Positions 6,921 to 10,182 of a stretch of 64,000 nucleotides of DNA are shown one piece after another. Location: sequence record OX638288. One strand, given 5' to 3'. The notes beneath the pieces were generated by a model that was not told the origin of the DNA, did no database searches, and saw only the letters and a list, made by a program, of their open reading frames with translations. Both the position numbers and the translations under genes were made by a program. This DNA comes from Escherichia phage UP19. Numbering within the stretch: the stretch's first letter is position 1; each line of letters starts with the position of its first letter.

Positions 6921-7211
6921 ATGTTATACGTTAAGGTTACTAATCCAGGGAATGGCTATAAATCCGATCAGGTTGCAGCCGAGTTGTTGATTCGAAATTA
7001 CGGCAAAGATGCTGTGCTTGATGTTCAACAGGTTAATATTGGCCGTAGTTCAAGCGATGTTAAACTCAAAGTTAACAGCCAACGCTATAATTCTGTTAAC
7101 TTTACTTTTTATACGGCAAATGAAAATGGGTTGGTCGAATATGACATCTTTAAAAATCCTTTGAAAATTGCTTCTATTAAACTTGATTATATTAATATGT
7201 GGCCACAATGA
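6921..7211 (+). CDS. hypothetical protein
   Basis: 96 aa ORF tiling the + strand. Confidence 0.5.
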   Translation: MLYVKVTNPGNGYKSDQVAAELLIRNYGKDAVLDVQQVNIGRSSSDVKLKVNSQRYNSVNFTFYTANENGLVEYDIFKNPLKIASIKLDYINMWPQ

Positions 7212-7684
7212 ATATTAAATTCGGACAAATTATCCCTAAAGGTTATGCAATTGAAATTGAAACCTGGGAAAATGATGGCGATAACTATAAAACCCAGACT
7301 GTATTTGGCGTAGAAGAACATGAAATCCAACAGTACAAATATATCCTAGAACTTTTCCATGGTTCTCATTGCAACAACCCGGATAAATGTGGTAATTCGG
7401 AATGGGACGTAGTTAAGCATCTGGTTATTGCCCACATTGAATCGGGTGTAAAATCAGGCCAGTTGACCCCTGAATTTTTAGATAAGGCCCTCGGTATCCA
7501 AGACTTAGAAGCCTTGCTGAATGACGACGAGGAAGAATACTACTTGAATGAAGCCCTTACTGAGCTCCTTGGTATGGCTTGTGAATATGATGGTGATTTC
7601 ATCCGTGTAATTTCTTACGTTAAGCTGTATATTATTGAAGAAGAAATTAAAATCCCTGATGTGAAAGCACTTGATATGCTTTAA
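7208..7684 (+). CDS. hypothetical acidic protein
   Basis: ATG 7208 overlapping upstream stop (ATGA); 158 aa. Confidence 0.5.
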   Translation: MNIKFGQIIPKGYAIEIETWENDGDNYKTQTVFGVEEHEIQQYKYILELFHGSHCNNPDKCGNSEWDVVKHLVIAHIESGVKSGQLTPEFLDKALGIQDLEALLNDDEEEYYLNEALTELLGMACEYDGDFIRVISYVKLYIIEEEIKIPDVKALDML

Positions 7685-7813
7685 GAATTATGTGATATTA
7701 TTACTCTATCATTAATACCCTCTATTACCAAAGGTTCTTCCCTCAAAGAGCCTTTCATAATAGACAAGGTCTATTAATCAAACTTACTTTACTTAATTTT
7801 ATTTGAGGTGTTT

Positions 7814-8080
7814 ATGTTAGTATTAAAATTAGCTTTTTATGACCCAGAAACCAAGACAACAACTACTAAACGTTGTTCTATTTCATATGAATGCCAATTT
7901 GGCGAAGTTGAGACCGACGGCGAGCCCTTTATGGCAATTGCCGATAGCACATTCGCTAAACCAAAAATAATTCCACTAGTTAATGCTGCGGCTTATCTGG
8001 TTGCTCCTGAAGAAATGACTTATCATACAATTCAGCACATGGCTAAAGATGATAATGCTCCTGCTGGATTTGTAATTTAA
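7814..8080 (+). CDS. hypothetical protein
   Basis: ATG 7814 after SD gaggtg; 88 aa; ends 5 nt before first tRNA. Confidence 0.5.
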   Translation: MLVLKLAFYDPETKTTTTKRCSISYECQFGEVETDGEPFMAIADSTFAKPKIIPLVNAAAYLVAPEEMTYHTIQHMAKDDNAPAGFVI

Positions 8081-8085
8081 ATTAA

Positions 8086-8159
8086 GGCCCTGTAGCTGGA
8101 CGGTCAAGCGAGCGACTCATAATCGCTGGATGGTGGTTCGATTCCACCCAGGGCCACCA
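8086..8159 (+). tRNA. tRNA, anticodon CAU (Met or lysidine-Ile)
   Basis: Perfect 7-bp acceptor stem ggccctg/cagggcc; anticodon arm agcga-ctCATaa-tcgct; T-arm ggtgg-ttcgatt-ccacc; encoded CCA. Confidence 0.75.
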
Positions 8160-8163
8160 ATTT

Positions 8164-8238
8164 GGATGTGTAGCTCAGCGGTAGAGCAGTTGACTGTTAA
8201 TCAATTGGTCCATGGTTCGAATCCATGCATGTCCGCCA
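8164..8238 (+). tRNA. tRNA-Asn (GUU)
   Basis: D-arm gctc-agcggta-gagc; anticodon loop ctGTTaa; T-arm catgg-ttcgaat-ccatg; encoded CCA. Confidence 0.8.
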
Positions 8239-8242
8239 AATA

Positions 8243-8318
8243 CGAGGCATAGCTCAGAAGGAAGAGCAACGGTCTTCTAAACCGTAGGTCGTAGGTTCGA
8301 TCCCTACTGTCTCGACCA
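8243..8318 (+). tRNA. tRNA-Arg (UCU)
   Basis: Anticodon arm acggt-ctTCTaa-accgt; T-arm gtagg-ttcgatc-cctac; encoded CCA; T4 also carries tRNA-Arg(UCU). Confidence 0.8.
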
Positions 8319-8490
8319 AACAAGAAACCGGGTCGCTACCGGTAAGTCGTCGGACTGAAGCTCCCTGAATAAGACCCGACTTTAAGGCGTACATGAGTTG
8401 ACCTCTTAAAGTCCCTTATCTCACAGCTGAAACGGCGCACAGAACACTTGCCTAGCAGGTGGAACCCCGACAAGGTTACCCTAGGTTAAA
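8319..8490 (+). ncRNA. structured small RNA downstream of tRNA cluster (candidate analogue of T4 rnaC/rnaD stable RNAs)
   Basis: About 170 nt with no credible ORF, GC-rich paired segments, same transcript as tRNAs, followed by a terminator. Confidence 0.4.
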
Positions 8491-8518
8491 GGCCCTTCCG
8501 AAAGGTTGGGCCTTTTTT
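8491..8518 (+). terminator. rho-independent terminator
   Basis: ggcccttccgaaaggttgggcc hairpin followed by T6. Confidence 0.7.
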
Positions 8519-8519
8519 G

Positions 8520-8527
8520 TATAAATA
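8520..8527 (+). promoter_or_regulatory. late promoter TATAAATA
   Basis: Exact TATAAATA directly after terminator, 27 nt before ORF 8554. Confidence 0.6.
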
Positions 8528-8553
8528 TACAGTAAACTAACTTAGGAAATAAT

Positions 8554-9108
8554 ATGAAACTTTTAAAATATTTGAGTTGGATTCTGTTGGTCCCACTAGA
8601 TTTTATCTCTATGGTTCTAGCCGTTATCCTTGCGCCTTTTGTGGTTCCTTTTCATAATAAAAAGACTGGTAAATTGCCATACGGTTTTGATTGGATGATG
8701 ACATACGATAATCCAATTGACGGCGATAAAGGTCATATTAAACGTTGGGCTAAAATCAGGAAAATGCCTGGTGGTGTTTATCTCCAGAGAGTAGCTTGGC
8801 TATGGCGAAATAAAGCTTATAACTTTGCTTATCATAAACTAGGCCGTGATTGTAGCTCGGAATTCCATTATCGTGGTAATCCTGACGTAGAATCAGGTTC
8901 TCCTGATAAAGCTCACCATGGTTGGTTGTGGATGTGGAATGATGACGCCTGGGGTGTATTTGCTTCAGTTCCTTATCTTAAGGTCGGCGGAATCACATTT
9001 TACCTTCGCGTGTACTGTGGCTGGAAGCTTAAGAGTCTTTTGTCTCGTAAAATCCCTAAAGCTATGTTGGCCTTCCACGTGAACCCGTTCCGGTTCTACA
9101 AGAACTGA
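8554..9108 (+). CDS. late-expressed membrane-anchored protein, unknown function
   Basis: 184 aa; N-terminal TM helix; preceded by late promoter; flanked by duplicated terminator/late-promoter modules. Confidence 0.6.
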   Translation: MKLLKYLSWILLVPLDFISMVLAVILAPFVVPFHNKKTGKLPYGFDWMMTYDNPIDGDKGHIKRWAKIRKMPGGVYLQRVAWLWRNKAYNFAYHKLGRDCSSEFHYRGNPDVESGSPDKAHHGWLWMWNDDAWGVFASVPYLKVGGITFYLRVYCGWKLKSLLSRKIPKAMLAFHVNPFRFYKN

Positions 9109-9112
9109 TTTA

Positions 9113-9139
9113 CGGCCCTTCCGAAAGGTTGGGCCTTTT
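9113..9139 (+). terminator. rho-independent terminator (second copy)
   Basis: Near-identical ggcccttccgaaaggttgggcc hairpin plus T5. Confidence 0.7.
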
Positions 9140-9140
9140 T

Positions 9141-9148
9141 GTATAAAT
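9141..9148 (+). promoter_or_regulatory. late promoter TATAAATA
   Basis: Exact TATAAATA, about 30 nt before ORF 9178. Confidence 0.6.
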
Positions 9149-9177
9149 AGATAAGTTAATTAACACAGGAAACAATA

Positions 9178-9795
9178 ATGAAAACTTACAATGAATTTTT
9201 GAACGAAAGCGTTCTGAATGAAGCCGGCGTGCGCATGACTAAAGATATGTGGCAAGCTGCTTATGATAAAATTTCCGGGACTAAAACCACTACCGAGTTC
9301 TTTAAAAACGTTTATGATATGTATGGTTTTGATACTAGTAGCCAGAAAGAATATTACAAAGCTTCCAAAGCTTTTAAAGATATCGTAGCCGGTGGCTCTA
9401 CTAAGCCTGCTAAACCAGCTAAAGCTCCTGTTTCTAAACCCGCGGCTCAGACCAAAGTTGCAGCACCGAAACCTACACCTAAAGCAGAGCCTGTAAAAGA
9501 AGCTCCTAAACCTAAAATCAAGTTCGACACCAGCACTATTGTTAAAAAATATAACCAGCTGGCTTCTTTAGTGTCGGAAATCGAATCCGAAACTAAACAA
9601 CTTGTTCGAGAATTCAATGTTCTTCGTAATGGTCAACACATTAACAACCTAGATACCCCGGACCTCTATCGTCTTTACCTGACGGTTGAAGGCCTTAAGT
9701 ATACCCAGCCTATGCACGAAGAAATTGATAACAAACTTCGTCAAGCCCGCCGCCTTGCAGGTGACGCCGCTCAGTTCGAAAAGACCCGTAAATAA
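9178..9795 (+). CDS. internal-protein-like protein (CTS MKTYNEFLNE) with basic Ala/Pro/Lys-rich linker
   Basis: 205 aa; N-terminus MKTYNEFLNES; KPAKPAKAPVSKPAAQTKVAAPKPTPKAEPVKEAPKPK low-complexity segment; late promoter upstream. Confidence 0.65.
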   Translation: MKTYNEFLNESVLNEAGVRMTKDMWQAAYDKISGTKTTTEFFKNVYDMYGFDTSSQKEYYKASKAFKDIVAGGSTKPAKPAKAPVSKPAAQTKVAAPKPTPKAEPVKEAPKPKIKFDTSTIVKKYNQLASLVSEIESETKQLVREFNVLRNGQHINNLDTPDLYRLYLTVEGLKYTQPMHEEIDNKLRQARRLAGDAAQFEKTRK

Positions 9796-9800
9796 TGAAA

Positions 9801-9820
9801 GGAGACTTCGGTCTCCTTTT
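9801..9820 (+). terminator. rho-independent terminator (UUCG tetraloop)
   Basis: ggagac-ttcg-gtctcc followed by tttt. Confidence 0.7.
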
Positions 9821-9854
9821 AGGGGGTTTAATCTAAAAATAATTTCACAAAGTT

Positions 9855-9895
9855 GTTTACACCTCCTTTAAACGTGATACTATAGACCTATCAAA
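9855..9895 (+). promoter_or_regulatory. early promoter / stem-loop cassette (PeSL-like)
   Basis: gtttacacctcctttaaacgtgatactatagacctatcaa; upstream cctcctt complementary to downstream SD aaggagag. Confidence 0.6.
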
Positions 9896-9918
9896 ACAAC
9901 AGAGTGAAGGAGAGTAAA

Positions 9919-10182
9919 ATGGATAATTATGGTGAATTGTTTAATTTCTTTATGAAATGCGTTCCTGAAGAATTTGGTGCTACAGTAAACGATATTAAAG
10001 TTATAGGTGATGACCATCCTATATTTGAAACTTACGCAGTAATGGGTAATGACGATGGGCAGTGGTATACCGTAAAGGTTGTGGTTAATATGTTTGCTGC
10101 TGAAGGGTACGTTAAATTGTCGACCAAAGTTTATCACGATAATGATTTTGATGCGGAAGATTATTTCAATAATATGAAATAA
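9919..10182 (+). CDS. hypothetical protein
   Basis: ATG 9919 after SD aggaga; 87 aa. Confidence 0.55.
   Translation: MDNYGELFNFFMKCVPEEFGATVNDIKVIGDDHPIFETYAVMGNDDGQWYTVKVVVNMFAAEGYVKLSTKVYHDNDFDAEDYFNNMK

Follow-up and report, generated by a model that had tools for sequence, protein, structure and literature searches.

The 64,000-nucleotide (nt) stretch of Escherichia phage UP19 analysed here (sequence record OX638288; "the window" means this whole stretch) carries a structured RNA gene directly behind a cluster of three transfer RNA (tRNA) genes. The gene belongs to a long-known RNA class and was previously unannotated here: positions 8319-8441 are almost certainly the ortholog of rnaD of phage T4, the species 2 stable RNA. 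The explanation of the whole locus that we consider probable consists of an rnaD ortholog with a conserved fold, processed to an RNA that would act in trans, and of a separate 3' trailer of the tRNA-operon transcript behind it. T4 species 2 RNA has been known since the 1970s, and rnaC and rnaD, abundant in T4-infected cells, are among the oldest orphan RNAs. An initial annotation had proposed a structured non-coding RNA for 8319-8490, co-transcribed with the tRNAs at the place of the T4 stable RNAs. Homology to rnaD and a covarying fold bear this out. The interval is structured RNA as stated, however not a single unit, but rnaD (8319-8441) plus the first two thirds of the trailer.

8319-8441, plus strand: ortholog of T4 rnaD (species 2 stable RNA), based on the T4 alignment, covariance model R1 and the consensus fold; 3' end placed after the T4 annotation

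Identity and distribution of the rnaD ortholog

The T4 record annotates rnaD (T4s002, NC_000866 71053-71171) as a small, stable RNA, species 2 RNA, of 119 nt. The alignment with the window shows identity over ~40 nt at the 5' end and over ~22 nt at the 3' end, and helices P1-P5 and the internal loop are common to both. With the rnaD stretch of the window as query, nhmmer matched the T4 locus at E = 3.3e-13. Covariance model R1 scored the window with 129 bits and T4 with 128 bits, and found a single copy in the window. As in T4, the gene lies in the region from trna.2 to e.8, on the same strand, directly after tRNA-Arg(UCU) and before the cluster terminator; synteny of the flanking genes trna.2, trna.3 and e.8 extends to phage JS98. 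The window comes from a T4-type phage of the JS98 group (Dhakavirus): over positions 7000-10000 it shares 98.9% identity with JS98 and 98.7% with IME281, and the rnaD stretch is 100% identical to IME281. The apical stem-loop (~45 nt) is unrelated in the two RNAs, being of type A in the window and of type B in T4. The 3' terminus reads CACAG in the window versus CACCA in T4, and rnaD adjoins the trailer in the window, whereas it adjoins rnaC in T4. Lineage-specific here are the apical type and the direct fusion to the trailer, the latter because rnaC is missing.

Searching 50,697 phage records by blastn, the stretch was found in 742, and the T4 match fell on the annotated rnaD and rnaC. For rnaD alone 734 phage records with 735 places were counted, essentially one copy per genome. 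The carriers include Tequatrovirus, Mosigvirus, Dhakavirus and Gaprivervirus, with phage hosts among Escherichia, Shigella, Salmonella, Yersinia, Citrobacter and Serratia. A looser pattern scan for divergent relatives yielded 12 loci in IMG/VR. In metagenomes a pattern scan gave 13 stretches, 12 of them T4-like and one a chance match in a high-G+C genome. All T4-like loci from these looser scans keep the same invariant rnaD segments. No match to 8319-8520 was found by blastn in 5,426 E. coli genomes, leaving a host origin or host mimicry unsupported.

The Rfam search recommended by the initial annotation was uninformative, since rnaC and rnaD have no Rfam family: neither at the gathering thresholds nor at E <= 10 was a family obtained for rnaD, rnaC or the trailer in the window and the T4 locus. 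Chance-level matches at E <= 10 (JA04, FourU, tRNA-Sec at 17 bits and similar) were dismissed. The missing family has helped a systematic mis-annotation of rnaD and rnaC as "hypothetical protein", and in most of the more than 700 carrier genomes the RNAs are unannotated or mis-annotated. In many deposited T4-like genomes one to three "hypothetical protein" coding sequences are laid over rnaD/rnaC. In JS98 and most other records the rnaD region is either unannotated or covered by such a call, and only few records (T4, RB9, Aplg8) annotate the RNAs.

A small protein gene would be the literal reading of these overlapping calls, and minus-strand open reading frames (ORFs) of 45-46 amino acids are present at 8254-8394 and 8336-8473. 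We give this reading practically no chance. The initial annotation had seen no plausible ORF after the tRNAs, and 8319-8518 indeed holds only ORFs of 21-46 amino acids, one of the two minus-strand frames overlapping tRNA-Arg. Coding is ruled out by the homologs, because their insertions and deletions are not multiples of three: the length differences include 1, 2 and 3 bases as well as larger steps, and apical segments are exchanged as a whole. Moreover, what is conserved are paired helices with compensatory changes.

Salmonella phage ABTNLS3 carries a 67-nt spacer between tRNA-Arg and rnaD (locus L036, about 435-500; also L020, 534-600). It contains an rnaD-type 5' tail, a P1-like hairpin of other sequence, GCCGUCG...CGGCGC and GACUGA, and has no long rod. 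The spacer looks like a miniature, degenerate rnaD paralog.

Consensus fold of rnaD

The G+C content of 8319-8518 amounts to 0.51 versus 0.36-0.40 in the flanks. Compared to shuffled sequences, the plus strand folds with z = -2.93 for 8319-8520 and z = -2.08 for 8319-8441, in agreement with the GC-rich pairing potential initially noticed. The minus strand of 8319-8441 gave z = 0.05. The dominant minimum free energy (MFE) structure of the window rnaD makes up 32% of the ensemble and agrees with the consensus fold. This consensus was built by RNAalifold from 19, then 30, distinct sequences including T4 and the window, and gave the same fold with 23 pairs. Comparative folding across T4-like genomes had been suggested along with the initial annotation; it resulted in one fold, with covariation, for all 30. 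The locus adds no new RNA class, while the comparison yields a structure supported by covariation. The following elements, all on the plus strand, were taken from the consensus fold:

8319-8326: A-rich single-stranded 5' tail
8327-8331/8339-8343: P1, a 5-base-pair (bp) hairpin with the invariant 7-nt loop GUCGCUA
Between P1 and P2: linker of two A
8346-8352/8433-8440: P2, joining the body to the 3' end
8353-8358: J2/3, GACUGA, invariant, one side of an asymmetric 6x4 internal loop
8429-8432: J3/2, GAAA, invariant, opposite GACUGA
8359-8362/8425-8428: P3
Between P3 and P4-5: small CCC/C loop
8366-8373/8415-8423: P4-5
8378-8413: apical stem-loop, hypervariable, always paired

Among the 30 distinct sequences, standard pairs were found in 97.2% of the cells. 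Sliding the 3' partners as a control reduced pairing to 28-50%, and the covariation score of rnaD was reached by none of 500 shuffles. Changes on both sides were observed at five pairs, namely the closing pair of P1 (A-U, G-U and G-C), the first pair of P3 and three pairs in P4-5. The first P3 pair (columns 41-111; window 8359/8428) is U-A in 17 sequences, A-U in 8 and non-standard in 5. P2 never varies, so that covariation is silent on it; its support comes from thermodynamics and from the variant in phage UPEC01 only. In this divergent Gaprivervirus (75 bits; locus L034, 697-814) GACUGA and GAAA are replaced by the complementary GGCC(U)G and CAGGC, which form a continuous helix; therefore the two strands of the internal loop face each other. 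The plus strand is the RNA strand, as indicated by the asymmetry of the z-scores and by G-U pairs (P2 32-118, P3 44-109) that would be A-C on the opposite strand. The apical ~45 nt exist in at least four unrelated sequence types, each of which folds as a hairpin, and types B/C contribute three further covarying pairs. The comparison distinguishes two parts of rnaD, an invariant base, at which mutations should be aimed, and an apical stem that changes freely.

For T4-type sequences the MFE prefers an alternative pairing of CUG/CAG plus AUG/CAU. It is disfavoured, being broken in all sequences with A at column 41, whereas the pair 41-111 covaries. The alternative holds in the 5 distinct sequences with a non-standard pair at 41-111. 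In those of the 5 that were inspected (L008, IME540, L026 and L031), U stands opposite U at this pair, and a T4-type 5' half is joined to a JS98-type 3' half. This suggests either recombination within rnaD or use of the alternative pairing.

The internal loop was inspected in the consensus for a kink-turn. G39-A40 opposite G112-A113 next to P3 fits a tandem G-A, while on the P2 side two extra A and a 4-nt instead of a 3-nt bulge leave only a loose likeness. A hammerhead reading of CUGA...GAAA was discarded: the flanking arms pair with each other, a third stem and a cleavage-site strand are missing, and A9 is not conserved.

We also considered a degenerate tRNA, a tRNA-like or a transfer-messenger RNA (tmRNA)-like element. 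Its position in a tRNA cluster, the CCA end of the T4 copy and the tRNA-arm geometry of P1 (5-bp stem, 7-nt loop) would fit such an origin. Nevertheless, the fold is a rod and not a cloverleaf, motifs of a T-loop or a D-arm are missing from it, and ARAGORN and Rfam (E <= 10) detected no tRNA or tmRNA in 8319-8520 beyond chance level. The CCA is not conserved either (mostly CACCG, in the window CACAG), and the T arm known from this region belongs to rnaC and not to rnaD. We therefore judge this origin very improbable. The bacterial Y RNA-like RNAs (YrlA) and other phage-encoded non-coding RNAs of tRNA clusters are likewise structured RNAs of 100-200 nt with a 5'/3' stem, often located beside tRNA genes. 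rnaD resembles them in these features and differs by having no Rfam match at E <= 10 and no tRNA-like module. E. coli is not known to possess the Ro/Rsr partner.

Natural variants, presumed processing and possible function of rnaD

T4 has two stable RNAs at the equivalent place, as the initial annotation stated. Of these rnaD is found here, while rnaC (species 1) occurs nowhere in the 64 kb: nhmmer gave no rnaC match in the window even at E <= 10, and the alignment of the window with T4 shows a clean 147-nt gap over rnaC. In T4, rnaC lies between rnaD and the trailer; it too is a stable RNA without a known function and stems from the transcript that yields rnaD. It has no sequence kinship to rnaD and possesses a tRNA-like T arm and an acceptor-like stem (the weak tRNA-Sec match), neither of which occurs in rnaD. 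Among the first 20 loci fetched rnaD was present in all 20 and rnaC in 11, with 9 lacking it; rnaC behaves as an insertion/deletion cassette whose status differs even among the close relatives of the window (L007 has rnaC). In two loci a third, unrelated insert occupies the place of rnaC; L003 and L033 carry inserts between rnaD and the trailer. Because of this gain and loss of rnaC and the third inserts among relatives, rnaD, rnaC and the trailer are, by sequence comparison, separate cassettes. In UPEC01 an insert of a third kind, with two GC-rich hairpins, follows rnaD and replaces rnaC or the trailer.

In Escherichia phage AV109 a deletion has removed tRNA-Arg, rnaD and most of rnaC, but not the trailer. 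The feature annotated there as "tRNA-Asn" (L043, 826-900) is a chimera, which begins as a tRNA and switches at the T arm to the 3' end of rnaC. Judged by this junction, the deletion arose when the T arm of tRNA-Asn recombined with that of rnaC. By its genome, AV109 is a natural rnaD-less T4-like phage, and rnaD is to this extent dispensable in nature.

The T4 tRNA cluster gives rise to a ~1.75-kb precursor, which ends behind species I and from which the species I and II RNAs are also obtained (PMC2330249). RNAC and RNAD have been described as late RNAs and reported as validated by Northern blot, the riboprobe described being that for RNAC (PMC9697503). By analogy to T4, rnaD of UP19 would be cut from the polycistronic tRNA precursor by the tRNA-processing nucleases of the host and accumulate as a stable ~120-nt RNA. 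In T4 the tRNA-like structure of rnaC would direct an RNase P cleavage 3' of rnaD. In UP19, which has neither rnaC nor its RNase P site, the position of the 3' end is uncertain: it may be formed by cleavage just before trailer hairpin H1, in the AGAACAC linker, or the RNA may reach as far as the terminator, giving ~200 nt. In rnaC-less phages rnaD and the trailer might function as a single ~200-nt RNA.

For the function we tentatively propose, as one possibility among others, a trans-acting processed RNA whose invariant base would bind a conserved partner and which would serve as a dispensable host-range factor. The basal module (tail, P1, P2, internal loop, P3) would show sequence-specific binding to a conserved macromolecule of the host or of the phage, and the apical stem would be a spacer or a specificity arm. 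Such an RNA may act as decoy or adaptor and as a conditional host-range or fitness factor, and would be neither a tRNA nor an antisense regulator. About 62 nt of rnaD, in loops and helices alike, are invariant across phages in which about every second position of the neighbouring tRNA-Arg genes differs; this argues for sequence-specific recognition by a partner and not for mere folding. The apical half evolves freely apart from pairing. In three independent lines of a T4-like phage, the virulence measure on ECOR34 rose from 0.17 to 0.98 through one convergent single-nucleotide polymorphism (SNP) in rnaD (PMC12685909). Comparison and host-adaptation SNP together make the function of rnaD directly testable. 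An antisense role was disfavoured, because no complementarity beyond chance was observed: exact matches of rnaD to antisense targets in the 64-kb window were no longer than 10 nt, a length that chance alone would give, and the invariant segments gave nothing beyond shuffles against 16S, 23S and 5S ribosomal RNA (rRNA), the rrn spacer tRNAs, RNase P RNA, tmRNA, 4.5S and 6S RNA.

Several points weigh against the proposed trans-acting role. Stability and ends of the RNA in UP19 are extrapolated from T4. The window gene encodes ...CACAG where T4 has ...CACCA, so that a tRNA-like CCA end is not encoded, and with CACCG in most relatives and CACCA only in T4 the CCA is not family-wide. No binding partner is known or predicted for rnaD, and no defined three-dimensional motif could be assigned to the internal loop. 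T4 deletions of the tRNA region are viable on laboratory hosts; any function of rnaD would therefore be conditional. The published SNP, judged by the coordinates of the paper, seems to lie in the apical half (PMC12685909). Finally, our literature search returned no function for rnaC or rnaD, and reviews still list it as unknown (PMC3014915, PMC9697503).

Some of these observations would fit a different explanation, in which the region is a cis-acting processing and stability module. It would organise processing by RNase P, RNase E and exonucleases, 3' protection and termination, and the ~120-nt RNA would be a functionless by-product. rnaD lies within the tRNA operon transcript, it has been lost in nature (AV109), about 50 years have passed without a function being found (PMC3014915), and the trailer begins at a recurrent junction, in front of which rnaD, rnaC or a third insert may stand. 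However, a by-product would not hold ~62 nt invariant over four genera beside a diverging tRNA-Arg, and a point mutation in rnaD alters host-specific virulence (PMC12685909). In Mosigvirus, VR7 and ECO78 an ORF intervenes between the tRNAs and rnaD, and rnaD is unchanged, which disfavours a role in the maturation of adjacent tRNAs. Taken together, we regard a pure cis module as unlikely.

The 3' trailer and the surrounding locus

Between rnaD and the end of the transcript a conserved trailer was identified, whose T4 counterpart is the unannotated sequence between rnaC and the terminator. Its features, all on the plus strand, were derived by folding and from an alignment of 20 distinct trailer sequences:

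8441-8518: conserved 3' trailer of the tRNA-operon transcript, homologous to T4 after rnaC (L001, 1762-1842), z = -2.59
8445-8451/8455-8461: hairpin H1, CACUUGC/GCAGGUG, with A-U in place of G-C in L032 (compensatory change) and G-U in L016
8455-8475 (T4: L001, 1776-1796): invariant 21-nt block GCAGGUGGAACCCCGACAAGG, unchanged in 17 of the 20 distinct trailers
8463-8466/8474-8477: hairpin AACC/GGUU, predicted by folding, with loop CCGACAA at 8467-8473
8478-8489: variable, optional hairpin, from the trailer alignment
8490-8518: intrinsic terminator AGGCCC..CC-GAAA-GG..GGGCCU plus U6, from folding, with covarying stem

The terminator has its stem at 8490-8495/8508-8513, inner CC/GG around the GAAA loop and the U run at 8513-8518; the stem covaries across phages between GGCCC/GGGCC and GCCCC/GGGGC. 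The initial annotation had let the structured interval end at a strong terminator. This terminator is present, however, it does not form the end of the interval but starts at 8490, where the interval ends. Between the tRNAs and 8490 consensus scans detected neither a promoter-like nor a terminator-like site, and a simple pattern scan overlooked the terminator itself because its stem contains a 2x2 internal loop.

Comparing the trailer with host RNA, the block 8455-8475 was found complementary over all 21 nt to nt 1941-1965 of E. coli 23S rRNA. On the target strand CCUUGUCGGG-uaa-GUUCC-g-ACCUGC the pairing comprises 10+5+6 bp with two bulges on the rRNA side, and the predicted duplex energy is -36.7 kcal/mol. 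The controls stayed above this value (all in kcal/mol): the runner-up site in the rrn operon reached -23.4, and -26.3 was the best value within 125 kb of phage sequence. Shuffling the block 400 times gave -23.9 +/- 2.1, the lowest value being -30.5 (0 of 400 reaching the block), and 449 natural 21-mers of the window with equal G+C content had a minimum of -33.3. Allowing for the number of tests, p is ~0.003 by our own Gumbel estimate, based on the null of the comparison of segments with eight host RNAs. The borders of the complementarity coincide exactly with those of the invariant block. Its centre CCGACAA lies in a predicted hairpin loop, with nucleotides predicted unpaired at p >= 0.8 in the window and T4 versions. 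Four other segments compared with eight host RNAs did not stand out. Among 185,579 species genomes the 21-mer block was absent, save one chance match inside an actinobacterial ORF. A sense mimicry of the 16S 3' end (ACAAGGUUACCCUAGG against ACAAGGUAACCGUAGG) was not significant, and pairing of the trailer block with rnaD was weak (-16 kcal/mol).

The complementarity to 23S rRNA is suggestive and not proof, and its significance is unexplained. It would fit a base-pairing riboregulator, either rnaD or, more plausibly, the released trailer, with 23S 1941-1965 as the only candidate target. The full-length pairing lies far beyond the shuffled and natural controls, its limits are those of the block, and an invariant rRNA target would account for the invariance of a block that is single-stranded in its loop. 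The layout also resembles that of a small RNA (sRNA) ending in a terminator at the 3' end of a tRNA operon. 3'ETS-leuZ of E. coli originates from the 3' external transcribed spacer of a tRNA operon, from which it is set free as a functional RNA. In the region only 8441-8518 is such a 3' external spacer ending at the operon terminator, and like 3'ETS-leuZ it holds a conserved, partly single-stranded block. The two differ in that they have no sequence similarity and that the only candidate partner of the trailer would be 23S rRNA and not an sRNA. On the other side, rnaD itself has no significant complementarity to the RNAs compared, and only ~7 kb of host RNA was scanned, so that a better target may exist elsewhere. 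The 23S segment 1941-1965 is folded and, in mature ribosomes, buried at the subunit interface. Our literature search gave nothing on rRNA complementarity. We consider a riboregulator of this kind doubtful.

If the trailer was nevertheless a functional anti-ribosomal RNA, to which we assign the same low probability, the block would pair with 23S 1941-1965 (helix 70-71 of domain IV) while the 23S rRNA is unfolded, newly made or damaged. It may then interfere with assembly or turnover of the 50S subunit or, alternatively, serve as a splint, which makes a nuclease cut in this region a nicked duplex sealable by the phage RNA ligase Rnl2. The complementarity to 23S rRNA, if real, would be a new kind of phage-host RNA interaction.

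Upstream of rnaD, ARAGORN and Rfam agree on the three tRNAs named by the initial annotation, with Rfam scores of 62-71 bits at a gathering score of 29 bits. Downstream, a late promoter outside the RNA marks the 3' boundary of the unit. On the plus strand these features are:

8086-8159: tRNA with anticodon CAU, most likely tRNA-Ile2 (lysidine type) and not tRNA-Met (ARAGORN; Rfam 62.6 bits)
8164-8238: tRNA-Asn (GUU) (ARAGORN; Rfam 71 bits)
8243-8318: tRNA-Arg (UCU), encoded CCA ending at 8318 (ARAGORN; Rfam 69 bits)
8520-8527: T4-type late promoter TATAAATA for the ORF at 8554-9108, by consensus

The consensus used for this promoter is established for T4. ARAGORN and the JS98 record label the CAU tRNA as "tRNA-Met". 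Its top E. coli matches are genes annotated as tRNA-Ile (80.5% over the full length), and it has acceptor stem and anticodon loop in common with T4 tRNA-Ile (CAT in the DNA). It is therefore most likely of the AUA-reading tRNA-Ile2 type. The initial annotation had described T4 as lacking tRNAs for Asn and Met. This is correct for Asn and literally true for Met; however, the CAU tRNA of the window corresponds to T4 tRNA-Ile.

A tRNA-Asn gene is present in T2L, RB1 and RB3 and is the preferred cleavage site of the T4 homing endonuclease SegB (PMC2330249). Unlike in T4, segB is not located between the tRNA genes of the window. The tRNA region of the window is of the T2L/RB1/RB3 allele type, and in mixed infection with T4 it should be a homing recipient.

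The terminator and late promoter module exists in two copies of 94% identity, at 8486-8517 with a late promoter at 8520 and at 9109-9140 with one at 9142. The ORF at 8554-9108 (phrog_2143, function unknown) lies between the two copies, and T4 has no such ORF at the corresponding position. The arrangement suggests a gene cassette that was inserted or exchanged through recombination between the flanking repeats. The final ~35 nt of this ORF are weakly similar to the trailer.

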